A DNA stretch of 57,916 nucleotides, filler included, from Basidiobolus ranarum (GCA_040143965.1; 7 parts of 7 records of this genome joined end to end with filler, not necessarily neighbours in it), one strand, 5' to 3'. Positions 8,312 to 49,650 are shown, numbered from the whole stretch's first letter. The notes: a model not told the origin generated them from the letters alone. Made by a program: numbers and translations.

Positions 8312-8975
8312 TGAAAACCTGGAGTTTGAAAGAAGTCACAATTCCGTATGAACCCTGACCACCACCACGTAAAGCCCAGAAAAGATCAGCATTTGATTTC
8401 TTGTTAGCGACCAAAAGTTTACCATTTGCGTTGACAATCTCAATTTCTAATACATTGTCTGAAACCATTCCATGTTTTCTGGAATATGGCCCAAAGCCAC
8501 CTCCCAAAGCGTGACCGCCGATTCCAACCAAGGGACAGGTTCCAGCGGGTATACCAAAACCTCCGTTTTTGAATAACGTGTAATATACTGAACCGAGCAA
8601 ACTTCCTGCGCCAACAACTGCCGATTTAGACTTGCTATCAACATTGATCGTATTCAATTTGGATAGATCAACAATGACGTCTCCATTACGTCCTCCTTGA
8701 GAGTAACCTTCATATGAGTGGCCACCACTTCTTGCTGAGATGGTATTGTTATTTTGAACTGCACACTTGACAGCATTTTGCACGTCTTTAGTATTTCTAG
8801 CAACGACATATAATAGCGGCTTGAAGTTCAGACGATTGTTAAAGTTGAAGTTGACTTTAGCGAAACCACCATTGGATTGATTTATAATAGGGGTACCAGA
8901 TTTCTTGAAGCAATTTTCAATACTGCTACCGAAGGCCAACGATGGCAAAATGGCAAGCAAAAAGAGTGACTTCAT
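8312..8975 (-). CDS. Secreted FAD-linked oxidase (berberine-bridge-enzyme/AA7-like), 3' end cut by the contig break
   Basis: Signal peptide MKSLFLLAILPSLAFG; RSGGHSYEG and AGTCPLVGIGGHALGGG (His and Cys for covalent FAD); DLFWALRGGG; no introns in the visible part. Confidence 0.92.
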
Positions 8976-10490
8976 TGCCAAACGAGCTAGTTCTGATTTC
9001 TACATCTTCACCGCGAGTGATATTTATAGCAAAGAGTACAAACTTTTCAAATTGATGGCGCACCCTCATGGTGTACAGTATGCAGGATACCGTCCTGGAA
9101 TAGCAAACAGTGAACATGTATTTACCAACCGATAAGAATAATTAATTTGTACCACCCTCGAGACTTGTGCTTCCTTTAGTAAATTCTCTCGTCAGAATAG
9201 AATCATGGAAGTGAAGCACACTTGTGGATTGGTGATTATTCTGGTCCAGCTGAATCCAAAAGCTATATTTGGTGAACATGCGTCAAAAGATGAGTAAAAG
9301 CCCCACCCGATCATACTTAGGGCACCAAAATTTAGTCATCTCTATTTGGAATGACCTATAATTGTAGATTGGATGGGCTTGGACTAATAGGGCATATTGA
9401 ATACGAACTCAGCACGGTTGATCTGAGCCACAATTACATGCTGTAAATATTTTGCGCTTATGTTGTTCAAAGGCTGGCCAAACTATCTCAGTCGGTAAGA
9501 TCCAATCCTTGTATTCAAATCTGCATCTCACAGAATCCGGGAGATCTGTTGGCTGGCAGTGGCACTAACACGCTTGAGCTGAAATTGACGGTAGGCCAAG
9601 TGTAATACCACTTGTACTAATTATCGGTTCGCTTTTATAACCCCAGCATGATACTACTAATATCATAATCCCTTAAAGCGAATATAAATACTCCATTTAA
9701 ACAGAAGAATCAAGTTTAGGAAAGAGAAGTCGATTATTCAGATTTAGTCCTAACCAAAGCATATTCTCATCACTTCAAGGTGCTGGTAACAAATAAATTC
9801 ATGCATATACAAGAAAGCGCCGAGATCGATTATGCGTGAAGTATTGGATTCTACACACATAGCTACGTTACATTGGAAAATAATGAAGCACTTGGATAAA
9901 GCTAGTTGTGTTCAGATAGTACGATCTTATCTTACGGATATCAACAACTAGGTAACTGTGAATCGAGACCTTGCCCCATATTGAGATTTGAACTTGTCCC
10001 TGCTCCTACATAACTACATAGTAACAAAATCAGCGCAGCACTGTGGTTTAATCAATCACCCAGCCTAAATCTACTTTGATCCCTTAGCATCGAAGATTTC
10101 CAAATTACTGCTATATTGAGAATGGTTCGGGATGCAGTGCTTTCATAGTGAAGGATTTGGAGCTAAGGAATTGGACAAGAAAATGATTTTTCATAAGGTT
10201 TCCATCGCATAAGAGTTACTCGCATTACAACATCATCTGTAGACAACACAGTTGGAGTTCTAATCATTCACATTAAGGTAAAGCCTAGGTGTGTAGTTCA
10301 TTACTATGCGCGCTCAACTTCATGGCAGATTCTTAAACTGTATCCATGTATATCACTATGGTCTGAATACATATTCCATGAATGCATTGGAATTAAGAAT
10401 ATGAGGATATATTTAATGGCAACAATGAAAGAATCCTCGATAAAACATAATTTGGATATTCTCTTGATGATACCACATATATTGCTGCTC

Positions 10491-10586
10491 ATAACTGATT
10501 CTCTTTTTTTGCAAACATTGTTGAAATAATGATATTTTTGCACCCACGAAATGATTTACTTTTATATTTAACACGCAGCTTAATCA
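10491..10586. repeat. Left arm (core) of an inverted repeat pairing with 12720-12812
   Basis: Reverse complement shares TAAATATAAAAGTAAATCATT and GCAAAAAAAGAGAATCAGTTAT with the right arm; weaker similarity extends outward. Confidence 0.85.
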
Positions 10587-12029
10587 GAGCCTGAATAACA
10601 GTCTTTGGCAGTATGAAGGTGAATCCACTATTCTTTATGATATTACACATATGGATATTCAATATAGTCTGTGATTCGAATTACCGAGTATGATTAAGAG
10701 CCTTTTTGATAACATGGTCTATATTATTGTCTTTGGCTATTTTATTTAAGTCTAGTTTGTTAACACTAATCACTTATATCAGATTTAGTTAATGATCAAT
10801 GTGAATCTTGGAAACTGACAATACAGCAATACAATAAATATTTATGTACTGAAAAGTACTACATATTTCAAGGTGCAAATAGATTGTGGTAAGCAGTTCA
10901 AGCACTAACATCGAGTATCAAGCAGTGTCTTGTAAACCTTTATCTACTCCTGTGCATACATGGGGATTTGCTTACTTTTTTGCCTTGTTTATATACCTGT
11001 CAAAATAAAGTAGCCTTGCCTTAACTACCTCCCCTGTTTTCTTATCTTCCCGAGGTTTTATACCTTTTTATACTAGCATTCTTGTTTTGATGCTTGTTTT
11101 AAAACTTAGCCTTAATTTGTGGCAATCTTGGATATCTGGTCCCCCTTACCCTAATTTTTCCTTTAATTTTCATAGGTATTGTTAACATAACAAGCCACAA
11201 ACGCCTCTTGAGATGGTACTGCACTGTAACAGCCAGGTGGACCATTAGCACTCCTACAGACTGGTACTGTTCTTTATCATTGTTTCAACAATCTTGGCCT
11301 ATGTTATCATCATCCGCTCAATAAGAATTGTTGCATGTTCTATATTGAGCACAAACTAAAGTTGCAATCAACATTCATGAACTAATGGTACAGATTATTC
11401 TGATGATAAAATAGCCTTAATAAGAAATTTGACCCTAACCCTAATATGTCAACCTTTTACTTGAGCTATAAGTATGTTTTGTCACCAAAATTTGGACCTT
11501 ATCAAACAGTTAATTTTTAACCTAAATTTGTTGACAACAATTACTCATACAACAAATGTTAAAAGCAACAATGTTTGATCCTTTGATGATATAATAATTA
11601 TAAACAAAATTATCTTTATATACTGCCTCTTTATCATGGTCACAACATTTGTTAGTGACTTTGTCATCATTGGGTTGGTAGCAGCCCCCTCCATTCAACC
11701 TTAGGGTTAGGGCATGAATAATACACCATAAATGAGCTTCAGACAGTCAACAAAATGAGGGCCTGAGCACCAGCAGTTACAGTATATAATGGGTTACATA
11801 TTGGCCATGTTGACAAGTTGAATGAAGCTCTGGGTTCTTTACTAGCAGGTATGGGAAAATTGATTGCTGTCTCTGAAGAGATCTGTGAAGGTAGCAAGAA
11901 ATGTTACATACATATCTACTTTAGAGCTAACTATTACCCCAAGCCTACATCACTAGCCAATTGGGGAAGTAATATCAAAGCTATAGAGTTAATTGAGTGG
12001 TGATAGTGATAGGTTATGTGGCAAAAATA

Positions 12030-12663
12030 GCAATGTTACCAAAATAGAATATATTATGGATAAAGTTACACCTGATGTATGCATTGTTAAACCTTGATGT
12101 GTAATAAATATTGACAGTGTTAGAGACTATAGCAATCTAGTGGTAGAGCTAGATAGTCCTGTAATCTCAGTACTATGAATAGATGTTGATGTTGTGTATT
12201 TTCTGTACTTTAATGAACATATAGGCTTGTTAATATACTGCAAGGGACAAAAGTGGTCAATGAACCAAGCTTGGTCCAGACCTTTAATGAAATATCCTAA
12301 AGCCAAAAAAGGTACTATGTCCTTTCATATTGAATGCTTTCTTAACCCTGATTTTGACCAAAAGTATGTTTTATTTCTGCTAACATTCCAGGTAATGTTG
12401 TGGAGTTTAAAGACAAAAACTTTGTGGCATAGATGCTAGACTATTCTGTAGATGCTGTGAATGATTTTAATCTTGAACATATACAGGTAATAGCACATAA
12501 TGGAGGTGGTTGTGACTTCCATCACTTGCTAACTTCTATGCACCATCCAAGAATACTTAAGAGTATTCCAATAAGAAACAATCACTTTATCGGCTTTGCC
12601 TTAAAGCGTAAGAAAATCCAGTGTAAGAATAAGGATTCACTTAATTTCGTATTATGCTCATAG
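12030..12663 (+). pseudogene. Decayed protein-primed family B DNA polymerase (exonuclease region), Polinton/Maverick-, virus- or linear-plasmid-like
   Basis: Motifs in the expected order: SF(H)IECF (ExoI-like), VVEF, IAHNGGGCDFHHLL (ExoII HNxxxFD-like), RNNHFI, KDSLNFVLCS; broken by stops and a frameshift. Confidence 0.75.
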
Positions 12664-12719
12664 AACCACATGCTTCAAAATATATATATATAATATAATT
12701 GGAATTGAAAGAAAAGTTA

Positions 12720-12812
12720 TGATCAAGCGGTGCTAAATATAAAAGTAAATCATTCATGGGTACAGAGATAACGTCATTTCAAAAATACTGGCAAAAAAAG
12801 AGAATCAGTTAT
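12720..12812. repeat. Right arm (core) of an inverted repeat pairing with 10491-10586
   Basis: Aligns to the reverse complement of the left arm, roughly 80% identity by eye. Confidence 0.85.
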
Positions 12813-13172
12813 TGGCCATAATGTAATTGTAATCAATCAAATCTATAAATTGATAGCTTTGATAGTACTACAGAAAAATTATAAAAGAAGTTACCACTTC
12901 TCTGAGTGCTCATTAAACTACATTATGAGCATGAATAGATACACCGTCATGCGGAGCAAAGAAATTTGCTTGAGCACAATGTATGAATATTAGAGTGAGT
13001 TAGAGAATATTTCAATACTGCATCGGAATATAGGTTGCCAAATACTAATCGCAAAGAGAGTACAAATAATACAAATTTTATTATGATTTATTTGATGAGT
13101 ATTTTACAATACTCTGTATAAGCCCAAGGTACAAAAACCTTCCTCAACTGCTGTCACATCTTTCTTACATAT

Positions 13173-14477
13173 TTAAACAGCTATTTCAGGTTTACTCGAT
13201 TCTTCATCATTACATGTCTCTTTGACATCCTTGGCAACGAAGTAGGTAAAGGGAATGGAGATAGTAAATAGTGCCCATGAGATAATGAGCTGAGTAAGGA
13301 ATGCTGTCTCAACTGCATCGATTCTCCAGGCAATGGCCCCACCAGCGGATTGGATTCCTTTGTAATATCCTGCATATCTGGCAAGAACAGTGGAATCATT
13401 TGACAACGCTCCCATGATCCAGTAGGCATAGGTCTGTAGGGCAGCATCACAAAGACCATAGCACACATAGAGCAACCATTTGGGCCAGAATGAGCCTGGG
13501 TGAGTAATGAAATCGATATCTTTGGGATGATTCTCCCGAGTATATTGCAGTTGAAGGGCAAGACCTCCAGCCCAGGTAGCTGTGAACAAGATTCCGATGC
13601 CAGCAAGACCGTACATGGCTCTAGCACGTCTTCCGAATCGAGGACTATCAAGGAAGGCTCCAAGAAGGTAGGCTCCAAGCATTTGCGATCCCCAGTAGAA
13701 GGCGTTGTTGAATGATCTGGTACGAAGACTGAACAAAACTCCATTCACCGCACCGAATTGATATGAGTAGAACCAGTTGGAGGCAAGGCAGAGTGGGGTC
13801 AATAAGAGCATGTATTTGTTGGTGAAGAGCTTCAAGATTTGAAGGATCTCTGCCCAGATATTGCTGAACTTCTCAACATGAACTCGACTGCCATCATCAC
13901 GGACAACTTTCTCAGGTGGAAGTAAGGCAAGACCAACGATAGCACCTACAACCATGATCACTAAGAATGCTAGGTAAGTCGAGTTGCTCACAGCTCCAGA
14001 ATCGGAGTGGAAATTTAAGCCGAATGGAATGAAGGCTCCCATGACACCGCCAAGGTTGAAAATGATCCAGAACAGACCCACGCATCTGCCCTTCTGATTC
14101 TCAGCTGGATATGCCATCATCACCACACCCTGTGTAGTCCATAGGATACCAGCACCAATACCAAGTATTGCACTAGCAGCAATCACGAAAGCAGCATTTC
14201 CAGTATTGTTGTAGTTGAGAAGAGAGCCAGAATAGAGAGCATAGGAGAGACCACCGATCAACAAGCAGAGTCGACCTCCAAGAATATTATAAAATCCACC
14301 ACCAAAGTAGCCAAACACGGCAAAGCAAGCATACAGGGCAACATTACCATTCTTGGCAGTATTGTCGTCCATTTGGCCACCGGCACCCATACCGTTGATT
14401 ACATTGAACATACCGGGGCAGCAGAAGCAGACAAGGCCTACAAGAAGAACTTGGGCGAGAGGACTATTGTATCTCAT
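13173..14477 (-). CDS. UNC-93-like (DUF895) MFS transporter, intronless
   Basis: MRYNSPLAQVLLVGLVCFCCPGMFN..G.GAGG, LWTTQG..MMAYP, ASNWFYSYQF, ARYAGYYKGIQSAGGA; multiple TM segments; ATG at 14477 preferred over 14543. Confidence 0.93.
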   Translation of the reverse strand: MRYNSPLAQVLLVGLVCFCCPGMFNVINGMGAGGQMDDNTAKNGNVALYACFAVFGYFGGGFYNILGGRLCLLIGGLSYALYSGSLLNYNNTGNAAFVIAASAILGIGAGILWTTQGVVMMAYPAENQKGRCVGLFWIIFNLGGVMGAFIPFGLNFHSDSGAVSNSTYLAFLVIMVVGAIVGLALLPPEKVVRDDGSRVHVEKFSNIWAEILQILKLFTNKYMLLLTPLCLASNWFYSYQFGAVNGVLFSLRTRSFNNAFYWGSQMLGAYLLGAFLDSPRFGRRARAMYGLAGIGILFTATWAGGLALQLQYTRENHPKDIDFITHPGSFWPKWLLYVCYGLCDAALQTYAYWIMGALSNDSTVLARYAGYYKGIQSAGGAIAWRIDAVETAFLTQLIISWALFTISIPFTYFVAKDVKETCNDEESSKPEIAV

Positions 14478-17004: not shown

Positions 17005-18478
17005 AGTTGCGATGTTCTTCCATGTATATACTCATTCGTATATATATTAGCAAAGGCGGTTATATCAAACTTACAACATTGAGTTATTGATCAATGTGTT
17101 ATAATGTATTAATATATTAGCATATAGACTGATCTTATACTAATCTACCGAGTACTTGGTTTTCATAAATATCAGTACGAGACTGACGGTAGTATTGATG
17201 GTAGCATTGAAAAAATGACTCATGTTACGCTTATTCAAGTATATAATTCAAAGAATGCACACAAGAATGTCACAACTTCATGCAGAGACTATCTTCATTG
17301 TTGGTAGTAAATGCATGTCTGGATACAGATGGAGAGTGGAGCTGCTTGATGCTTGAAATTATGATCAGGTAACGCTTGTTGAGGTAAAGATTGACCAAGA
17401 GTATTTGCTAACTCTAAGGGTAGATCAATGGGTATAGCATTCGACGAACCTGTACCAGCTATTCTCTGTACATCATCACTCGCGTTATTGAACCCTGAAT
17501 CTGATGCTTCAGATAGTAGAGGGTCTTCAGCCTAGCTATGGGATGCATGCTGTGACAATATAAACTCAAGTAGTAAGGATATTTACTAATTGTGAGTATG
17601 AAATATCTAATGTATTATAATTAGTAAGTTATTAACTGAGTGCTGTCTATATCACCTCGCTATGAAAAATATAGGTGAGGCCAAGTAAATCTTTTGGTTT
17701 GGTACAGATTGTAACAAACATTATGCACATTGTGTAGATAACAGTCTTTGATATTTAGAAAGTGATTCCACCACTCCTTATGATACTAGCATCTGTCCTT
17801 GGCACTGTCAATGAATTAGCTTTGAGCTCACATTTTTTAAATTATGCTTTGGCTAGTAATGATTTCTGGCTCTCTTCATAAGTGAATATATGAGAAGAAT
17901 CGACTGGAGATAAAATCGTTAATATAAAAAGCAAGAAGAAATGGCAGTTATCAGGTCAAAAAAGTATATTACCCATTGCTATATTATTGATCTCTTTATG
18001 TGGCGCTTATCTCAATACATATGATAGTTTGCAACGTTACAATAGTAGTTTTACTACCATCTGACTTTTTGTTGTACTGCAAACTGAGATAACACTCTGG
18101 GATGCGGAAGTTGAACTGTAGGGAATTTGAGCTCTTTTATACACCAAAAAGGCTAACTACAAGGAGAAAATCATGGTTTTCTGATAGATGTCGATGGTAG
18201 GTTGAATATATGCTTATTTATTTCAATATAAAAATCCAAATTCACAATGGAGCCATTGAATACTTAATAACGGCTTAGTTATGGCTTCGACTGTACTGGT
18301 GATATATCTTCGAATGCTCATAATTCCAATTGATTTTGTTGAGAATTGAAAAAGTACTTGATAAAAATCTGTATTCAAGTAAACGATATTTATATCTTTT
18401 TGACTCGGAAAAATAACCCAATTGGGGTCATTTGTAGTTGTTGAAATTGAGCCCAATAGTATGCATAATTAATCCTTA

Positions 18479-18648
18479 TCATCTTGACAAAACTATAAAT
18501 GTCAATTTTCTACTCGATGAATCAATAAGTGAAAACCACCAATTCTTATTGAAAACCACCAATTCTTAGTGAAAACCACCAATTCTTATTGAAAACCACC
18601 AATTCTTTTAGTTCGAAAAATTACTTCCAACAAACCCCCAAAATACAG
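18479..18648 (+). mobile_element. Partial Copia-family LTR with an internal 20-bp tandem repeat x4 (18530-18607)
   Basis: CATCTTGACAAAACTATAAATGTCAA..AAGTGAAAACCACCAATT matches 883-950; unit TGAAAACCACCAATTCTTA(T/G). Confidence 0.88.
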
Positions 18649-20265: not shown

Positions 20266-21068
20266 TGGAATAAATACGGGTGATGCGACAGCCTAAGCTT
20301 ACTTATCCAACTGGCCGAGATAGCTAGAATTAGACAACCAGCACATAAGTGGGATAATGAATGTTGAAAATGCATATTTCATTTTAAAAGCCATAATAAA
20401 AAATGGCTCTCATACTTGATTTTCAGAACTATTGAACTCCTACAATTTTCGAAGCCCTCAAGTTGACCCCAGTCCTAACCCTTACTTGGATATAAGCAGC
20501 AAGAGCAGCATCTGCATGTATATGTATAGTGCATATTGACTCTGCCTAGAACCTCACTGGATGCATTTACTAATAATATTGGGTATCACATTGACCATCT
20601 GTCAAGAGGATCATGTACTTCATAAGATCATACACCATCAGGATTATTTTACTCATGATTCCTCAAATTTGAAGCTAAGCTACCCGTCTGTTCTCTTCTT
20701 TGATGGCAAGAATGCATTTGAGGGTATTACAACTACTAATCCTTAAGAATATTTGTTCTAAAGTCTTCTCTCAAGCAGAAGTTCTAATAACAAATTCGCC
20801 AACCATAGTTACTCAACAGCAACCCACTTCTATAACTGCTTTACCAGAGAGATTTTCTTATTTGATTAGGAATAGTACAATATAAGCAAAAGTAAGCTAA
20901 CCCTAACCCTAAGTGATGTTCTTGACGACCAATGAAGTTATACAAAGAAAATGTGATTTTATTAATTCGCAGTTGATTTGAAGTGAATTTTTAATCCTAT
21001 CTGTCACCGTTCAACATTTACGCGAAGTTTGTCTTTGTATTTCTCGCTTAAAAATAACAGTGTCGTGA

Positions 21069-21743
21069 TTATCCAAACCAATCTTGGTTTTCGTGTTCCC
21101 TTGCTAATATCGAATTCTGTCTCTTACTTAATTTCTTGCTCTCCACTAATCGCGCATGATTCGCAACGTCGCCTCCTTTCTTCATATGGAGTACTCGTCG
21201 ATTATCTCCATAATAATCAATCGCCACAACTTTCCGTATCTTCGGACTGGCAATTAAGGTTGGAAGCTCGGTGTTCGCCCAAATCCCCTCGTTTGGCAGC
21301 AGACTCGTGTCATCGGTCATGACAAATCCCTCTCCGCTACATAACTTCGCGTACGCCTCGCTCATGTTACTGAAGTAAGTATCCTTCTGTCCACTCTTTT
21401 GGATACATCTCAGCCAGCCTTTCTCGTCGTTCATGGAATAAAAGTCTTCATTTAGTCGGCCAGGTTGAGCTGGATGCTCAACGGACGGCCATATGGACCA
21501 GATGGTTGTTAGGTCGTGCTGACCAGCATATTCCTGCGCATGTTTGGATAAACCGCTGGTGGCGTTTTTTGCTGTGCGACGAGTGTAGAAGAGACACTTA
21601 TTTTCAGGGATCGCCGCAAGCTTGTTGTCTAAGAAGAACTCAACGGTGGCATTACCGATGGGTAGACAAGGGACCTCAATCGGTGCGGTTGATACGGCTG
21701 AGGCCAGTAGAGAGACAGCGAAGAATAGTGAATACATCATGAT
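21069..21743 (-). CDS. Secreted protein with CD38/ADP-ribosyl cyclase-like (NAD+ glycohydrolase) motifs, intronless
   Basis: Signal peptide MMYSLFFAVSLLASAVSTA; PENKCLFYTR, FSNMSEAYAKLCSGEGFVM and IWANTELPTL..KIRKV parallel CD38 [29 protein letters not shown] and TFGSVEVHNL..KVQ; ORF could also start at 21779. Confidence 0.7.
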   Translation of the reverse strand: MMMYSLFFAVSLLASAVSTAPIEVPCLPIGNATVEFFLDNKLAAIPENKCLFYTRRTAKNATSGLSKHAQEYAGQHDLTTIWSIWPSVEHPAQPGRLNEDFYSMNDEKGWLRCIQKSGQKDTYFSNMSEAYAKLCSGEGFVMTDDTSLLPNEGIWANTELPTLIASPKIRKVVAIDYYGDNRRVLHMKKGGDVANHARLVESKKLSKRQNSILAREHENQDWFG

Positions 21744-22199
21744 GGCAGAATGGATCTGAGACGAAGGCTTTGCTAACATTCACTCGCCTCTTATATATTT
21801 CTTGATTGCTTCAAAAATTTTCATAAAGAATCGGAAATGTTATGGAAGATTTGTCTTTGGTGATGCATCATATTGATCTATCCCAAATAGTAAAGGCAAT
21901 ATCTGAGACGAATAGTCAAAGCAATCTCTAAAAAGATTAAATGGAAGACGGGCGTTTAGCTAGTCACTTTTTGTGAGGCTTGTGTTCCCCAGCTGTCAGT
22001 AATACCCTGAAAGTTGCATATTTTTTTATAATTCCAATTTATTTGGAATCTTTTTTGTAATTCCATTTGATTACCTAGTTTGGTTCTTTTTTATAATTAC
22101 CTACATGTGATGGCATCTATCGTGCGACTAAATACTTGATTCTCACATAATTTGCCATGTCGAATTCCAAACCTTCGCTTTTCTATCCTCTTCGAGGTG

Positions 22200-22249
22200 G
22201 TTTGCATAATAAATGTTATGTTTGCATAATAAATGTTTGCATAATAAAT
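22200..22249. repeat. Short tandem repeat, GTTTGCATAATAAAT x3
   Basis: Seen directly in sequence. Confidence 0.85.
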
Positions 22250-24191
22250 ACTTCCAGGTAAGTCTTTCTCCTCTCCGGTCCACCTGAGCCGCAGATTTTG
22301 TTCTAGGTCTGATAGTTAGTTAGAATGAAAAACTCGATCGAAGCGAAACATTGAAAGAAAAAACATACCTGAATATCCCCATCTACCATCCTCACCGTCT
22401 CCATCCGCATATTTCTGGGTCACCTCTCTTTACTGTTGAATTGATTTTTTCAATCGTTACGGATTCTCTCTTTAATGGCCTCAACTGGGTAGATGTTGAA
22501 CGTGTGTATAGTTACTAGAAATAGAGAATCGATATACGATTTGATAACTATGACACTGTACTGGTAGAAGTATATGAATAATGAAGTAATTCATGTCCAG
22601 CTAGTTGACATTGTTTTTAGTACTAGCCGTGGACGGTATTCCCAAAGACCAGCACCATTCACTTCATTGTCAGCATCAGCGCCTTACTAGCATTTTAACT
22701 CATCCCAATAGTGGATGATGATTCTTTTATCATATTACCATTGCCTTTGTTGCATCAGCAATGGTAATACTTGTCGTGGAAGATGTTAAGGCCACACAGG
22801 CTCATTAGTATTCGGATGTTATGAACTCCTGATAAATCACACAGTTTACTTGCTACAAATATTATATCTGAGCACAATTACTATACACAGTTAAATTTGA
22901 GTTCTCTAGTAAAAAATCGATGTCTAAGGTTAGGGTTAGGGCTATATATATTAATTTTGTGTTGTTTTTGCTTCATATTCACTTTGCTGGCTTTATCGCT
23001 AGTTTTATGTACTGCTTCTATAATTGTGAGTAGTATATTTACGAATCGTTTGTATCCATATAATGGCCAAAATATTGACAGAAAATTACTTGCCTCTCAT
23101 TAAATAAGTTTGTATTTTAATCAAACTTATTAAAAACTTCTAAATCTTAAATAGAACTACAAGTTCTCTACTTGTCGCTTTCCGGCTTCATAAGTGCCTG
23201 CATTATTACTGCTATTGTCACCACTATTACCAACTCTTTATTTCAGTGATATGTATGCACAGGGCAAGTGCTATATTAAAGCAGCTATTCTCCTCTCATC
23301 CCATACTACTCCACTATTCATCTGGTTTTTTGTTAAGGTAAATATACCGCATTAGTTAAGGATTTGCTTCGTATTTGATTGGATATAGAGTTCATATGTT
23401 AATGCCAATATACTGTATACAGTAACGAATGAAGGGACTTTAGTTCACAAATTAAATTCAACACTGATATCGCCCAAGTGCAGTGGCTTATTGATTCGGT
23501 TGTATATTAACTTCTGTTACTGAGGCAAAGGCTGTGGCAATGTTTAGGGTTAAGTACTTCGATGGTAAGTACTTATTGCTATATATATTCACTTCACAAC
23601 TTGTCATATTATTTTATAATTATAATTATAGCATTATAACAATTAGTATTGTAGAAGGCTTCTCTACTTATTATAACATTGTAACAACTGGGGCTTCCCT
23701 ACTTGCTATTATAATTATATCATGCTAAACATGTGGGCACTATACGTATATATATCGAGTGACAATATAGCAGGTAATATCAACATAAGGATTATCTGAA
23801 GACTGAGCAGAGCATAAGTGAGCACCAGTCTGAACCTCATATACATACATGATTAAAGGCTTATTTGCAGCTGATTCTAAGACTCGTACAACCGTATTGA
23901 AGATAGATTCTAGTACAAGGACTGATTGAAACCTTCCAAATCAATTCGAAATACAAGTACTGTGGTAATACTCTAGTATACTTCTCAATAGAAATATTTA
24001 TACAAATATGAAACAACTGAACACTATGACTATATAACAACTGAACACTATGGCTTGATGATCCGTCTGACTGAGTGTTATTTTATAACTTTACTCCACT
24101 ATAGCTGATTAGGACTACGTCATCTCAATCTATCTCCATAAATACTCGGAGTCACTACATCCTAAATACCCACCTACATTTCCGCTTTCTC

Positions 24192-26526: not shown

Positions 26527-29500
26527 CGTTGAATTTAAAGCTTGTACCAGTATCCAATCTATATATATACCCGAGAGAAGACTTACTGGTTGAATCCATA
26601 TTTACATCTTCCCTTGGCAGTCAACACACGGATAGCCTAATTCAAGCTCATGGAGTGTATGATTATATTGTGTATTGTAGTATACAGAAATGGCATAATA
26701 CAAGTGCTTTCCTAAGAATAAACAGGATATTGATTTGCAAGTTATGTTATAAAAAAGTTCTGTGATTGGTAATGATGACTACCGTGAGTGATGTATGTGT
26801 ATGGTGTAACGTGGATATAAGGCTATATTGCACATAGTGCACAACCTCGAAGTACTACACTTATTCTACTTCTGCTGATTCCAGTGTGGATCCAAGGCAT
26901 TGAATTACACCAATCTCAAGTAGTAACTTCAACTAGTTATTACTTGGATAAAGTGAATGAGAAGTATTTACGCTGCACATCGTTTATCTACTAGTATTTA
27001 TATTTATGATCCCGTCTTCTTTACGTAATGTCAGCTTTCCTCTCTTCTCGTATGAGTTGGATTCTTCAGTAGCGGTAACTAGAAGGTAGCCAACTCCAAT
27101 CAAATTATATTCGTTACACTTGGTTATATCAAGCGATGTAGAACCAGTCGGATACAGTGATATAGCGTTGGCGCGAATAAAACGGAACTGTGCCATCTAT
27201 TTATCTTGTTTTGTAGCACTAACCGCAATACTAACAGATGTGACGATAGTTATGGATTTAATATGAACTTTTTGATGTTAGTGTATTGTATTACAACCAA
27301 TCAAAGTAAGTACTATTTAAACAGATATTGAGGCTACTACTTTGTATTACCCAAGACTCAGCTTGATCTATTTAGCCAACATTTAACGCTACCAATAAGC
27401 CCAACATTCTAATAGGACGACGGGATCCCAACTAACGGAATATTGATGATTGAAGGGATATGGTATTTCGTCAAGTTCGGCATTGTGATAATGATCTGGC
27501 TTTGAAAAGCCCCTCGCAAGAGTTCTGTAGCGATTAAATGTTGTGGTAACTCACTAAATTCTTCAGCAATAAAGCCTTTCAGAAGACTACTTCCAGTAAG
27601 CTGTAAATGCGAAAAAAATACCTGAACTAAACAGTTGCTCAGAATGAACAGTCGCTCCACTCATTTTATTTGTTGTTTGAATGAATTGTAATTGAACCTG
27701 TTAACCAAACTCAGCTTGCTTTGACTCGTCTGAAAAAGCACTCTTTTGAGTCCTACTTGCATCTTTCCACAATAAGGCTCCTGCTCAACTTATCTTTAGC
27801 GACAGAGCAGAAAGCATGATACAGCTTCTGTGCTTCAAAGCAATGCCAACTATTGCCTTCTATTGATGAAATTCAAGTTTACCGAGCAATTTGAGATGGC
27901 CAACAATCACATTTGGTAGCAACTTTTCCTCATCCATCAACAGATTTATGTTCCTTGAACTTCCTAACATTATGGTTAAAAGAGAAGCTGTATCAATAGT
28001 TTGCATGATTTGAGAATTCTTCTTGTGAATTTTGGCTTGGACTGGTACACATTTTGAGAAACTCTTCCACAACATCCACCACCATCGTAGTCGTAGTAGA
28101 ATTCAATTTTCTTTTTTTCTAACTTGGTGTTTGCCTGGTATTTCGTTTGGATATCACTTCTTTATTTGGCTGGATACCTCTTTTTCGCTTTCTGGAGTTA
28201 ATCAGGGTCTTTGTGGAGATATCTGAGCTTCCACAGAAACGAACCACCCCCTTCCTTATCAAAGAATTTCGCCTAGCTAAACCTTCCGTAGCTTATTAGC
28301 AGCAATCGGTTTCTTGTTCAAGCTCAGAATTTCTTGATTTTGCCCCTCCTTCTCAAGGTACAATTCATTAATGATTTCTAAGCTTTCTTCTTTTTCTCGT
28401 TTAGCTTTTATGAATAATTGCTTCTCGATTTCTGTGAAATATTCTTTGGCTCAAGTATGGATATCAATATTTGGGTCTTCTTGCGAGTCAACGAGAAAGG
28501 AAATGTAGGCCCGATTCACTGAATCCTGTAGTATGTTGTTTATATCTAAATTGTTCTATCTGTTAATAGCGAGGAAAGTAATATCATATGTACCATTGGT
28601 AACTACATAAACGGTTGGTCTTTAATGCCATTCTTATTCGATAAATGGTTTGTGTTGGAATGATTGCTTAAATACCAGTATTAAATATACACTGGCGCAC
28701 ACAATGAATTCACTTTTTCGGTATGTAGTTTTGAAATGACCACATTTCTATATTCACTCCATTATTCAATAGGATATTGCTAGTACAGCTTAAACAGAAC
28801 TCAAACAACACTCTCTAACGTTATGAGAGGGATTCTATTGAGACTGACAGCGATACTTTCATTTGTGCATATTGTAGTCAAAGGGTTAATATTGAGCTAG
28901 ACATGTTTTTTACAATCTACTTAGATATTTTTGGGCATTTGTTAAGTACCGGCTCGACCATCACCAAACTTTTGACAAAATGGTTTTGGCCATCAGCATT
29001 GCATATTTCATCGGAATATGATATACTTGCATCCATTGTATCACTTGGGGTGAAGGTTAACAACAATGCACTTATAGCAAGTCATGAGAACTTCACCCTA
29101 GCTAAATACTCAATATTGACAATGTTAAGCATTTCATTAATATAAAGAGTAATCCTTGCTTCAAACATGACTTTTCAAGTAATTTCTTCAACTCAATTTT
29201 TGGTATTCTACAATTCATACATCTAAACAGCTGTCATATTCAGAAATAAAGGTTACTGAAAGCTTGATTAGTTTCTCTGGTGGTCACAAACATATACATC
29301 AAAACAGGGTCTATTCTAGGAAATATCTCTGCAGCCAGACTGACTATACTCAGTGTGGTGGGATTTAAGATCATTGAAATCACAATCAAAAGTTAGTGGA
29401 ACCAACTCTTAATACTCACATATGTCAGAAGAATGAAACGTATGAGAGATACTCATAAATATATAGAGATATTGAGTAATCTTCTTGAACTAACGAGTAC

Positions 29501-29772
29501 GTTCTTAATGCTATTACATTTGCGGTTTGATAATGGGCAATATATCTTAGAGTATTTAACTTATCCTGCTTTACATGCCACATGCTCAACACCCTAACTG
29601 CTGTACCTAGACTTCCAGATGCTAAGTGTTAGTGTGACTAACATTGGCAGTATCATGACTGTGGTGAGTTATGGTCAAGGTTTAAGTTAAACCATCCCAT
29701 CGATACAAGAGTGCCTGCCATTGCCAATCTCCTCTGACTGGATTAGTGCATTTCCATAACTATAGCTATATA

Positions 29773-30102
29773 TGTTAAAGTATTTGGGAGCCTGTTGGAA
29801 GTGGTTTGGAGAATTAGAGAAATTGGTGGTTTTCACTTGTTGATTTATTTGGTAGAAACTTGACATTTATAGTTTTGTCAAGATGTGAGCAAACTAACAT
29901 GTAGAATGTGCTAAGGAAGGTCCCAGGAACATGTGTGCAAAATTTGGGGCTTTTAGCATAAGTTTGAAAAAAATTATATATTTGAGAACTTCTAAGAAAA
30001 TTCCTCATGAGAATAATGGGCAATATCTTAGTTCAATATAAGATAACTAAATACTAAGCTATATATGACTATATAGGTGTTTAGGCAATGCTAATTTCAA
30101 CA
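29773..30102 (-). mobile_element. Solo Copia-family LTR
   Basis: Reverse complement of the 648-995 LTR; TG..CA ends; flanks ATATA/ATATG (5-bp TSD with one mismatch). Confidence 0.92.
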
Positions 30103-30307
30103 ATATGATGTGGCTTAACAATTTGCGGATCACTACTACATTTGGGAAATTGTATATTTTGAATAGTTTGGAAATAACTCTTCATTCTTGGCATCAGCAT
30201 GTGACTAATTGATGGAATCCCAGGAATGTTTTCACTTTAAAGTTTATTAGTTTATTTGTGGTGGATCAATTAAGTATAGAATGTTAATTCTAAATCTGGG
30301 CTGCTTC

Positions 30308-31758: not shown

Positions 31759-32982
31759 TTCAAGAGTCTATACCCGAGGAGTAGATTCTTATTGAGAGAA
31801 ATATTGTGCAAGTCTATTTTATAGCAAAAAGCGACTTGTTTTCTTTAAAAGCCACAACGACATCCGATCGGGTTATATTTCTCTGTACTGCTTACCAGGA
31901 TTTCTGGGTTACGTTAATATGAAACTGTGGTTAAGATGCTTATTACTCTATCAATGTATAATTGGTGGATAGTTGGTAAGCAGAAATATCGGCAAACATG
32001 TAAAGTGACAACCATTTATCAGTTGAACCAAGCAATCGTGCCTACTAGACTGGTACATTGGGAAAGCGTAGTTGATATTCCCCCCTATTGGTTGCCAAAC
32101 CTGTTATGAAGGAATGTTGTAGAACTAATTGATTGCTTTGGAAATTGATCAGCTATCTTTGACACAGATTATAGTAATTAATTCAGGTGAGATCGCTCGA
32201 ATTGGTTTGGAACATATTGCTTGAAAAGTTGATTCTTCACGCATATTCTTGAGAAACTTAGACAACTCTAACCACTGTACTTGGTATGAATAGTGGGACC
32301 AACTTGAGAAGTTGAAGATCCCAATATAAGGTTAAATGAAACATAAATTAGTTGGTTAGAAGACAATACTCTCTTAGGTAACTCTCACCATCAATACACA
32401 TTCGGATTCATCAATTTGCATTCCCAGTAGCATTCCAATAAGTCTGCTAGTTCCAGGCCATAAAAAAGACACTTGATTTACAGATTACATGATTCTCTTG
32501 CTGAGTAAATTTGAATTGAGTTCAGAGTAATATATTTACAAACCCCACCGCGCGACTCTGGGTACAATGGCCCTACGAGTGCAACCAGATGGATAGCGTT
32601 TAGCAATTAGATATACGCATTACCTTTCAATTACATCTAATAATCCCATTTACTGCTTGAATATTACTCAGCGACCTCTGATGATGGTAACACCAATCAA
32701 ATTCAGGCTGAGCTAGGCTCTAGTCAAATAAAGAAAATGTTGAATAAAACTAGCTACAGTATGAGTAAATAGGTACAACTTTCTATATTTTTAGCGTATT
32801 TCTTATTGAATAAGCTCAAAATTCAAAAACATTATAGAAGAGTGGCATATTGATAACCCTATTCCTTCTTCACTGATCTCTGTTTCTAACTCTTGCTTCA
32901 GGAATCTATGCTTGTATTTTCAATTGGTTACTTTTCTATTTTTCTATCTTACCAATAATGCTATTCATGCAACCAGTGTTTA

Positions 32983-33093
32983 TGTTGAAATTAGCATTGC
33001 CTAAACACCTATATAGTCATATATAGCTTAGTACTTAGTTATCTTATAATTCACTAAGATATTATCAATTATTCTCAATCGGAATTTACTTAG
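32983..33093 (+). mobile_element. 5' part of a Copia-family LTR, cut by the contig end
   Basis: TGTTGAAATTAGCATTGCCTAAACACCTATATAGTC.. matches about 648-757. Confidence 0.92.
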
Positions 33094-33898: not shown

Positions 33899-34151
33899 TG
33901 TTGAAGTATTTTGGGAGTTGTTGAAAGTGATTTGGAGAACTAGAAGAATTGGTGGTTTTTCACTTACTAATTATTGAGTGCAAGTTGACATTGATGATTT
34001 TGTCAAGAAGTAGATAAACTAATGTGTAAAGGACAGTGTGAGGTTTTTTGGAAAAGTTGGCGAAAATCATATAATTTAAGAACCAAGTGAATTCCTCATG
34101 AAAATGTTGAATAATAACAGTGAAATTTAGGTAGCTATGCTATTGTCAACA
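33899..34151 (-). mobile_element. Diverged, internally deleted solo LTR of the same family
   Basis: TGTTGAAGTATTTTGGGAG..GAATTGGTGGTTTTTCAC..GTCAACA; flanks ACGAG/AGGAG (TSD with one mismatch). Confidence 0.8.
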
Positions 34152-41810: not shown

Positions 41811-42596
41811 TTTTGTTTCCATATATCTGGTTGAATTTTTTAAACTTAGAAATCTATACATCTTATAATCATGAAGCGTCGTATATTTTCATTCATTTTA
41901 TACTATTATATCGTTATGGAGTGGTCAGGAGTAATCAAAGATCCCATTAATCATGCATTGTTCAATGGACTTGCTAGGAAAATTGTAAAAAGAGCCTGAC
42001 AGCCATAAGTATAATAGCAATATGACTCACCAGATACTATACCAATAAGATATACAGCTTCAATAGAGTAGAAGTGCTTGTAAGCTTGAAATTTAATGAT
42101 TACTGTTGATTGGCAACGTATTCTATACTAGTTTGTTGGAGAAGTCCTGAGGATATCGCTTCATTCCAGTACATTAAATTCTGAATCAAATGGATATTTG
42201 ATAGTGTTAGGGTTAGGAGGCACATTTAGTGAATCAGTTCAGAGCTCACTATTTATACTGCATTAAGATCAGGTACTGTGTGGTATATTTGTAAAAGCTG
42301 AGCTATATGGGGTACTTCTTTATGTCATTATGTTTTTGGATGTTAATATTAATAAATGAGTTGCTTGCCCGCACAATTAAATTATATATATTAGTAATGG
42401 ATGTCGGCTAAATAAAAAGTTAAAACTTCAATAAAGCTGTCTTATCTGAATTGATTACTTTTGCATACATAGGGCAATATTACTCTTAACTTATATATAC
42501 AGAATAACAGATTGAGTGTGATAGATGATGCTCCGAAATGTTGAAAGTTGGTGAAAATATTATAGTCATCCTAAAGCTCCCAAACCTTGTGCATAA

Positions 42597-42929
42597 TGTT
42601 GAAGTACTTTGGGGGTTTGGTGGAAGTGGTTTGGAGGGCTAGAAGAATTGATGATTTTCACATTTTGATTTATTGAGTAAAAGGTCACATTTATAGTTTT
42701 TCTAAGTATGTAGCATATGTTAGGGAAAGCCCCAGAAACATGTGTGCAAAGTTTGGGGCCTCTTGGAAAACTACTGAACAGGATTATATCTGAAAACCAC
42801 TAGGTTGGTAAAAATATTCCAAGTAAATTCTGATTGAGAATAGTCAAGGATATCCTAGTGGAATATGGAATAACTGAGTACCAAGCTAAATAGGGCTATA
42901 TAGGTATTTATGCTATGCTAGTTTCAAAA
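42597..42929 (-). mobile_element. Solo Copia-family LTR with perfect TSD, nested in an older opposite-orientation LTR (about 42570-43040)
   Basis: CATAA on both sides (42592-42596, 42930-42934); the flanks rejoin into LTR sequence AAGCTCCCAAACCTTGTGCA..TAATAAATCAACAAGTGAAAACC. Confidence 0.88.
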
Positions 42930-43617
42930 CATAATATCCGGATAAGGTTCACACCTTAATTTCATTGTTAAGTTTTGATTTTTAGACAAGATTATATGTA
43001 TCAAAGTGTCTAATAATAAATCAACAAGTGAAAACCTCACTCTCTTATGACAATCAATTTCACTTCCCATCTGAGCAACAATTCCCGATATGCATACGAA
43101 TGCATAAGAACCTCTGTAATTGATGGACAAGTGAGCAGCTTAATAAAAATTTTGTTTTGTTAATATGCAACTTATGTTATTGTATTGCTACCAGACTACT
43201 AGAACAGTATTTAGTTAGAATAGGTACTATAGTGGTTGTTTTGAATAGAGGTAGTAGTGTAAAGTTCCATTAGGGATTCATTAAACTTGTGATATGGAGC
43301 TTGGATAATGTATATAGGAGTAGATAGAAGCATAATTAGTAATTAATAAGTAGTAAAAGATGAATTTGTTTTTTCAAATATTTGTTGATTCTGAGTTTAG
43401 TAAGATTGTAGCTAAATATGAAAGCCTATTCTGTGAAATCCAAAGATCCCAATCTGCTGGCTGTAATAATTGGTTAAATTTTTAAAAAAAAAACCTGATA
43501 ATTTTATAACTAAATTTCAATGGAAAATGAAAAAAAGTTGAAATTATGTTGGCATTTCAAAGGCCCTCAAACTCCAATTTTGCCTAGGGCATATTAGGAG
43601 ATTGTTGCCCCAACTTT

Positions 43618-43938
43618 TGTTGAAATTAGCATAGTCTAAAAATCAATATAGTCATATACAACTTAGTATTTAGTGATTTAATATTTCACCTATACATCAC
43701 TCACTATTCGCAAGAGGAGTTTAGTTAAAAGTTTGAAGATACTTGGGGTTTTCAAACTTGTGATACAAGCTCCTAGCTTTGTACATATGCTTCTGTTACC
43801 TTCCTTAATAAATATTCATGTTTTTTTGTTTACATGTTGATAGAACTATAAATGTCAACATTCCACCCTGCTTTTCTAAGCCCACAAATATGTCTAACTC
43901 TCCAAACCACTTCTGAAAACTCCCAAAATTCTTCAAAA
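43618..43938 (+). mobile_element. Diverged solo LTR of the same family
   Basis: TGTTGAAATTAGC..TTTTCAAACTTGTG..AACTATAAATGTCAAC..CTCCAAACCACTTC; no clear TSD. Confidence 0.82.
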
Positions 43939-48977: not shown

Positions 48978-49650
48978 TTAATCGTATTGACGACCAGAAT
49001 GGGAACGAGAATGATTCTGTTGACCATTTCTGTGGGAGATTCCACGTTCGTATTCGTTATCATACTCGTCTTGTTCGTATTGACGACCATAACGAGAACG
49101 AGGATAGTTCTGCTGACCATTTCTGCCATATACACCACGTTTGTACTTGTTATCGTACTCGTCTTGTTCGTATTGACGACCATAGCGAGAGCGGGGATAG
49201 TTCTGCTGACCATTTCTGCCAGACACACCACGTTCGTACTCATTATCGTACTCGTCCTGTTCATATTGACGACCATAGCGAGAGCGAGGATAGTTTTGTT
49301 GACCATTTCTGCGAGAAATATCACGTTCATACTCGTTATCGTACTCGTCTTGTTCATACTGACGGCCATAGCGAGAGTGGGGATAGTTTTGTTGACCATT
49401 TCTGCGAGAAATATCACGTTCATACTCGTTATCGTACTCGTCCTGTTCATATTGACGGCCATAGCGAGAGCGGGGATAGTCTTGTTGACCATTTCTGCGA
49501 GAAATACCACGTTCATACTCGTTATCGTACTCATCTTGTTCATATTGACGGCCATAGCGAGATCGGGGATAGTTTTGTTGACCATTTCTGCGAGAGACAC
49601 CACGTTCGTACTCGTTATCATACTAATCTTGCTCATACTGGCGCCCATAA
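48978..49650 (-). CDS. C-terminal part of a Tyr/Arg/Glu-rich tandem-repeat protein (93-bp, 31-aa unit, about 7 copies); 5' end lost at the contig break
   Basis: Unit YGRQYEQDEYDNEYERGISRRNGQQNYPRSR; differences between repeats are mostly synonymous in this frame; AATAAA downstream of the stop; one GAG>TAG near the contig end. Confidence 0.7.

Follow-up and report, generated by a model that had tools for sequence, protein, structure and literature searches.

A probable composite fossil in Basidiobolus ranarum nuclear DNA: a plasmid-type polymerase relic within the remnant of an unrelated inverted-repeat transposon

A broken gene for a protein-primed family B DNA polymerase (pPolB), enclosed by an inverted repeat in the genome of the fungus Basidiobolus ranarum (GCA_040143965.1), raises the question of whether one shrunken mobile element or parts of separate origin are preserved at this site. 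The locus lies on contig C1001 within the window, the whole stretch of 57,916 nt (filler included) analyzed here, which is a string of short contigs from a 65-Mb, 13,754-contig assembly (G000). A preliminary description had read it as a Polinton, virus or linear plasmid that had suffered internal deletion. The locus is probably a composite fossil in nuclear DNA, in which a dead piece of a plasmid polymerase sits within the old remnant of an unrelated terminal inverted repeat (TIR) transposon. Host genes flank the relic on both sides on the same contig.

The relic occupies positions 11758–12669 on the plus strand and is a broken pPolB fragment of the type carried by virus-like elements (VLEs), which are cytosolic linear plasmids. 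By tblastn it matches residues ~171–502 of the 1011-aa polymerase P0021 (E 2.8e-57) with 38–49% identity over three segments (11758–12000, 12005–12379, and 12364–12669) connected by two frame changes, and hidden Markov model searches give these segments independent E-values (i-E) of 6.6e-11, 8.1e-25, and 2.1e-37. Five stops interrupt it (11764, 12095, 12176, 12430, and 12661), and profile similarity to pPolB begins fading in at 11713. Its content corresponds to the rear of the N-terminal (terminal-protein) region and the 3′–5′ exonuclease motifs; it ends ahead of the polymerase domain, which is absent. Four motifs listed in the preliminary description are present in order, at 12320–12340 in one frame and at 12490–12531, 12574–12591, and 12631–12660 in another, and the homology it had recognized proves strong and longer than noted in both homologue and profile searches. 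The N-terminal remainder of the polymerase was sought by profile in 11269–11712 and not found. The relic DNA has one match in the genome, namely the relic itself.

The relatives of this polymerase point to its source. A 97-aa exonuclease piece has 17 protein matches among 1.84 billion representatives (best E 1.2e-26, 56% identity), 14 of which pass the Pfam cut-off for DNA_pol_B_2; a word-index search of the same piece against longer proteins gave 21 candidates, none of them significant. Organisms are named for 20 of the 45 homologues of P0021 (Coemansia 13, Saccharomycopsis 5, Umbelopsis 1, and Babjeviella 1), and none of these 20 carries a virus or Polinton label. All four are VLE-bearing fungal genera, and cytosolic VLEs have been described in them (Heneghan, Salzberg, and Wolfe, 2026; PMC13348850). 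P0021 is encoded on an 8613-bp U. nana contig, equal in size to the 8.6-kb TIR-bearing VLE in Figure S2 of that study, and the contigs bearing P0006 (7735 bp) and P0008 (6885 bp) agree in length with nodes 288 and 460, which are labeled there as group III, the non-Dikarya sister to the polymerases of yeast killer plasmids. In a FastTree phylogeny with 55 reference sequences, from which P0017–P0019, P0009, P0011, P0012, P0022, and P0032 were excluded as short or unrelated, two pieces of the relic were placed separately, and each came to lie within the Umbelopsis/Coemansia clade to which P0006 and P0008 belong. Searches of two further collections added no kin, as a scan of IMG/VR with P0003 gave four pattern matches with no confirmed relatives and a PDB sequence search with P0021 gave no matches.

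Judged from these sequence comparisons, the source is a cytosolic linear plasmid (VLE) lineage, since the relatives that can be traced to papers are cytosolic VLE polymerases. The donor VLE likely belonged to Group 3/Supergroup K, the killer clade. Such a placement does not imply a toxin-making donor, because the 8-kb VLE of U. isabellina, a member of that clade, is described as lacking a toxin (PMC13348850). The polymerases of the 8-kb Umbelopsis VLEs, P0021 and P0061, are placed among Coemansia sequences that have been linked to group III, whereas Mucoromycota VLE polymerases are listed as groups 1, 4, and 5 in PMC13348850.

The arms of the inverted repeat can be traced to other copies in the genome. 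Its core (10491–10586 versus 12720–12812), as first described, holds up with 82% identity over 96 bp and a score of 121 against a shuffle mean of 23, reached in 0 of 500 shuffles. The weaker extension proposed to about 10290 and 12990 is at chance level (229 of 500 shuffles reach it), and inward extension is likewise (272 of 500); the whole repeat spans 10478–10586 versus ~12720–12825. The statement that no terminal motif or target-site duplication (TSD) could be identified is overturned by the other copies, which set the element ends at 10480 and 12823, with TA outside each and termini that are decayed CACTA. The left TA (10478–10479, plus strand) keeps the register of the TA ahead of CACTA in other family ends, and the right TA (12824–12825, plus strand) is given by aligned family copies, which start with TA followed by CACTA. 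About 400 bp of family sequence are retained at the left end (10480–10878, plus strand; nhmmer E 3.3e-42), where the arm profile spans 10478–10679, a long-arm profile covers 10485–10878 (E 9e-46), and family similarity runs on to ~10878. The right end (12720–12823, minus strand; nhmmer E 2.2e-12) is truncated, with ~105 bp remaining.

The two arms are 80% identical and are sisters among 66 ends (support 0.91). Genome matches to the left arm number 31, two being the window's own, and the terminal motif has 62 genome matches as opposed to 0 for the reversed control. Where ends were found without TA in the query, TA is present in 11 of 22 anchored ends and CACTA (at most one change) in 16 of 22, with 9 of 31 unanchorable; in a set of 54 ends picked partly by TA, the T is found in 45 and the A in 49. 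Inward-facing arm pairs occur 22 more times, 0.13–1.75 kb apart, and their interiors are dissimilar and often contain other repeats. On these alignments, the arms are two cognate ends of a dispersed family of non-autonomous TIR transposons with TA/CACTA termini and a TA duplication. Both the AYA-TA flank and the TA target agree with the Tc1/mariner preference, that of Tc1 being CAYATATRTG (PMC9635669). The family would accordingly fall in a Tc1/mariner-like class, a CACTA/CMC type being also conceivable. Three further decayed pieces of the family lie in the window (17737–17851, 28664–29187, and 42221–42504), and a second repeat of ~350 bp, weakly similar to the arm, occurs within many family copies (L043, L003, L042, L079, and L103).

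Do these arms belong to the polymerase? A VLE-polymerase profile gave no match at 99 arm loci, some of them overlapping (best i-E 2.2), and no full arm was seen at 23 loci that include all other pPolB places found. P0021 has 14 genome matches, of which three are the relic, one is a distant gene on contig C1296, and ten are short broken scraps on nine other contigs, mostly among host genes and other repeats; no arm lies within 1.5 kb of these scraps except for one weak 50-bp inner-arm piece. Arms and polymerase were seen together only at the locus on C1001. The fuller copies suggested as perhaps present elsewhere in the genome did not materialize, as none of the relic's polymerase lineage was found in the assembly. 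PF03175 occurs at six places, and the longer pPolB genes are not parents of the relic, because the four longest frames are 21–32% identical to its lineage. The scrap that overlaps the relic (C7084) shows DNA identity of only 62% over 411 aligned bases, which suggests separate captures, and the ten scraps on nine other contigs would show that this polymerase lineage was captured repeatedly.

These distributions bear directly on the proposal that the arms are the element's own TIRs and that this element, be it a Polinton, a virus or a linear plasmid, has lost internal sequence. A pPolB-family enzyme, here of VLE lineage, does co-occur with inverted repeats at the ends, as in Polintons/Mavericks, and VLE integrations retaining a TIR are on record in the literature. 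The arms are nevertheless not the termini of a pPolB element, because they form a dispersed TA-targeted family with TA/CACTA ends and are never found with pPolB at their other loci, an outcome that the preliminary description had itself named as refuting its proposal. Furthermore, the flanks share only the 2-bp TA instead of a 6-bp TSD, the ends are decayed CACTA without (AG)n/(AGT)n, unlike the 5′-(AG)3 or (AGT)2 of vertebrate Mavericks (PMC8097293), unrelated pieces of DNA form a mosaic in the interior, and the nine other relic contigs are armless within 1.5 kb apart from the weak piece mentioned above. No open reading frame (ORF) of at least 100 aa lies wholly inside 10480–12823, and no integrase, ATPase, capsid or protease was recognized by six-frame reading by eye, the Pfam scan of the interior having covered 11993–12660. 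The deleted-Polinton model is largely refuted already and retains hardly any probability; what survives of the original proposal is the pPolB relic and a linear plasmid as its source. A pPolB with an inverted repeat is insufficient for a Polinton call, because plasmid DNA can land in unrelated TIR elements.

The mosaic comprises, from left to right, a fragment of a second low-copy repeat (10958–11268), which also occurs on C140 and C68 at 74–79% identity and shows no pPolB similarity, a single-copy filler (11269–11712; 1 CpG versus 11 expected), the relic, and a ~50-bp junction to the right arm with a (TA)6 run (12681–12692). The interior is CpG-poor, as first noted, with 13 CpG versus 66 expected (3 versus 29 in the relic), compared with observed/expected counts of 34/71 and 23/28 in the flanking genes; other repeats in the window are equally depleted, which removes the value of CpG loss as a mark of the element. 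Similarly, the inverted CCCTAACCCTAA dimers reported at 11433 and 11701 are present in the filler (11433–11444 and 11701–11712) and one lies right against the point where the profile match begins (11712/11713), yet they lack specificity, since three of the five dimers in the window lie outside the element and the 65-Mb genome holds 706 copies. Two dimers in 2.35 kb exceed the genome average, an excess noticed post hoc. Neither CpG loss nor the telomere dimers are specific to the element. The dimers were also considered as the termini of a small element or as a junction scar, a view dropped for lack of conserved flanks: those of the 11433/11701 pair share nothing with dimers on eight other stretches or elsewhere in the window. 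Another inverted pair (20901–22941), whose flanks are likewise not shared with other pairs, encloses a secreted-looking 223-aa ORF (21069–21740, minus strand).

The base composition also speaks to a possible assembly chimera of plasmid-like and nuclear reads, for which the fragmentation of the assembly into short contigs offers an opening. The relic, however, is decayed and CpG-depleted like the nuclear repeats, whereas the pPolB contig C1296 is open and CpG-rich, and it is bracketed by cognate arms and TA flanks, so that an artifact of this kind is very improbable.

The reading preferred here is that a plasmid fragment was patched into a break within a resident transposon and is now inert, which is considered probable. 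Plasmid DNA in yeast nuclear genomes is known as nuclear sequences derived from plasmids and viruses (NUPAVs; PMC4431711; PMC11848437; bioRxiv 2023.07.20.549855), and gap filling in a broken transposon has been proposed for single-copy animal Pack-TIRs (PMC8277862). At the outset, a non-autonomous TIR transposon with CACTA ends occupies a TA site between two host genes, an arrangement directly visible in the sequence. Foreign filler would then have been used to repair a double-strand break or an excision gap within the transposon, a repair that presumably cost the right end its inner portion and would have left ~0.9 kb of a VLE DNA polymerase gene (probably Group 3/killer clade) next to a 0.3-kb piece of another repeat and 0.4 kb of single-copy DNA. 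Finally, the unit decayed; CpG was lost across it as in other local repeats, presumably through methylation and deamination, and stops and frameshifts were gained. The composite codes for nothing functional, is incapable of its own replication, and no movement has been observed since capture.

A capture in two steps would instead place an ordinary NUPAV elsewhere first, to be copied into the gap from the chromosome or brought there by a deletion between neighbors. The chromosomal repeat fragment in the mosaic favors such a route, nearby templates are described as the commonest fillers of Pack-TIRs (PMC8277862), and a 1.2-kb unit bearing another VLE scrap is duplicated on C591 and C1541. Yet no parent copy exists in the assembly, where the sole overlapping relic is the divergent C7084 scrap; a parent could be missing because the assembly consists of 13,754 contigs. 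A two-step origin is rather unlikely on balance. The duplicated unit itself (L058:1031–2194 and L059:879–2104) is 85% identical between its copies and contains a polymerase motif A scrap, and no TIR or long terminal repeat (LTR) ends were found for it.

A similarly low probability is given to a mobilized Pack-TIR, in which the plasmid fragment was acquired elsewhere before the 2.35-kb composite transposed to its present position as a unit. Such a jump is favored by the presence of two cognate ends with TA on either side and by the rejoined target, CACA-TA-ATTG, in which 8 of 10 positions fit the CAYATATRTG preferred by Tc1 (PMC9635669). Against a jump stand the single copy, the absence of pPolB from the 99 arm loci, and the account of single-copy animal Pack-TIRs as arising mostly from gap filling without transposition (PMC8277862). 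Also improbable is the most far-reaching scenario, in which a non-autonomous Tc1/mariner-type transposon took up its cargo directly from a killer-clade plasmid of the cytosol and became a Pack-TIR loaded with extrachromosomal DNA, the roughly ten nuclear scraps in Basidiobolus recording a Group 3 VLE that the assembly no longer shows. If true, a Pack-TIR with plasmid cargo would give cytosolic VLE genes a route of movement within the fungal nucleus.

Several observations weigh against the patched-fragment reading or parts of it. The order of events, the repair route, and the methylation are reconstructed from the present-day sequence. On its own, the 97-aa exonuclease piece scores 15.4 bits in Pfam versus a cut-off of 25.8 (E 0.009), and one of its 17 matches is labeled Corynebacterium amycolatum, yet groups with a Komagataella polymerase. 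Support for the exact sister of the relic pieces is low (0.58–0.64). The basis of the Group 3 assignment is the match of the P0006 and P0008 contig sizes to figure labels, and the assignment is only likely because the tree was built without authentic Polinton or adenovirus sequences and without those of VLE groups 1, 2, 4, and 5. On the side of the arms, another end (L138) resembles the left arm as closely as the right arm does (0.80). No transposase of the arm family was found: none of ten DDE_3 places in the genome has a convincing arm (one has a piece at E 0.006), and L114 gave no Pfam match in six frames. The superfamily assignment is made from ends and target only, because no transposase was found. 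Intact but armless Tc1-like transposase ORFs of 336–339 aa, 73% identical to each other, lie on C1558 (L066) and C280 (L070) and are possibly domesticated.

Each ingredient of the preferred reading has a described counterpart from which it departs. Like a NUPAV, the relic is a cytosolic VLE gene fragment that has decayed in nuclear DNA, and it is one of several genomic scraps; NUPAVs are known from budding yeasts (with toxin clusters in filamentous ascomycetes), whereas the present case concerns a non-Dikarya fungus and the inside of a TIR transposon. The non-Dikarya VLE polymerases of PMC13348850 include its closest described kin, given the identity to the U. nana polymerase and the nesting with Coemansia and Umbelopsis sequences, but their genes are open and reside on free linear plasmids of high copy number, whereas the relic amounts to 0.9 kb of nuclear pseudogene in which the polymerase domain, plasmid ends, toxin, and chitinase are all missing. 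It does not match a free VLE, being a single-copy broken fragment in a chromosomal contig. VLE genes carry a promoter, the upstream conserved sequence (UCS) ATNTGA, 20–40 nt ahead of the start codon (PMC6211774). The relic has no gene 5′ end; related 5′-end scraps on C10786 (L063, ~650–870) and C3491 (L064, ~760–940) show ATNTGA ~20–45 nt before ATG, two occurrences that are not independent because the scraps are 80% alike. Single-copy Pack-TIRs (Tan et al., 2021; PMC8277862) share with the locus a TIR element with TSD, a single copy, and foreign interior DNA, but are described from animals with chromosomal, mostly nearby host templates, in contrast to plasmid-derived cargo whose parent copy was not seen. 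Non-autonomous Tc1/mariner elements resembling MITEs (miniature inverted-repeat transposable elements) share the TA duplication, the AYA-TA flank, the TIRs, and many short non-coding copies, and differ in that the present family has no cognate transposase found, arms as long as ~700 bp (L114), and heterogeneous interiors.

The left nuclear neighbor is a host FAD-binding oxidase gene (8315–8975, minus strand), an ORF running off the contig with a match to Pfam FAD_binding_4 (E 3.6e-30), and the right one is a host UNC-93/major facilitator superfamily (MFS) transporter gene (13173–14477, minus strand) with 87% identity to a Basidiobolus ranarum protein. Elsewhere in the window, a dispersed LTR-like repeat of ~340 bp recurs at 650–1183, 18480–18646, 29768–30122, 32980–33093, 33899–34028, and 42596–43936, and also adjoins two other VLE scraps; positions 346–669 may be a copia-type integrase piece. 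A 93-bp tandem repeat (49018–49649; 6.8 copies) is open on both strands.

Contig C1296 (L048, 6553 bp) carries an open pPolB C-terminal half of 430 aa, cut off by the contig end, together with two intronless kinase ORFs of 858 and 437 aa. Its pPolB part has 27% GC and has not lost CpG, and the layout resembles that of kinase-bearing Coemansia VLEs, making it a candidate free VLE. In the 60 bases ahead of both kinase start regions ATNTGA was not seen, save for one ATTTGA further up. Over its first 150 aa, the 437-aa kinase (L048:2957–4270) tentatively resembles MLKL_N/MCAfunc four-helix bundles (Atlas score 0.88–0.89, TM 0.77), and this kinase is possibly an MLKL-like cell-death protein on a pPolB element. 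Other-lineage pPolB genes with few breaks lie on AT-rich contigs of 2.5–4.3 kb (L050 on C2703, L047 on C9640, L049 on C8912, and L051 on C10080), of which C8912 additionally carries an AIG1-like GTPase ORF. With its open pPolB and two kinases, C1296 may merit more attention than the relic locus.

NUPAVs, non-Dikarya VLEs, and Pack-TIRs are all already described, and the genus Basidiobolus is on record through Table S2 of Heneghan et al. (2026; PMC13348850), which lists contigs with DNA polymerase hits in two Basidiobolus assemblies (11 and 2); the main text of that article mentions neither Basidiobolus nor NUPAVs. A literature search by title found none that dealt with Basidiobolus VLE relics or with a NUPAV lodged within a TIR element. 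On the evidence of plasmids found in free form in Coemansia, Cunninghamella, Umbelopsis, and Podila, Heneghan et al. (2026) argue that killer and helper VLEs already existed in the ancestor of terrestrial fungi. The locus is best seen as a fossil of past plasmid carriage and not as a new virus or a shrunken Polinton. Nuclear relics are hard to dismiss as culture contamination, and nuclear scraps of an apparently killer-clade polymerase show that the Basidiobolus lineage, too, once carried such plasmids.

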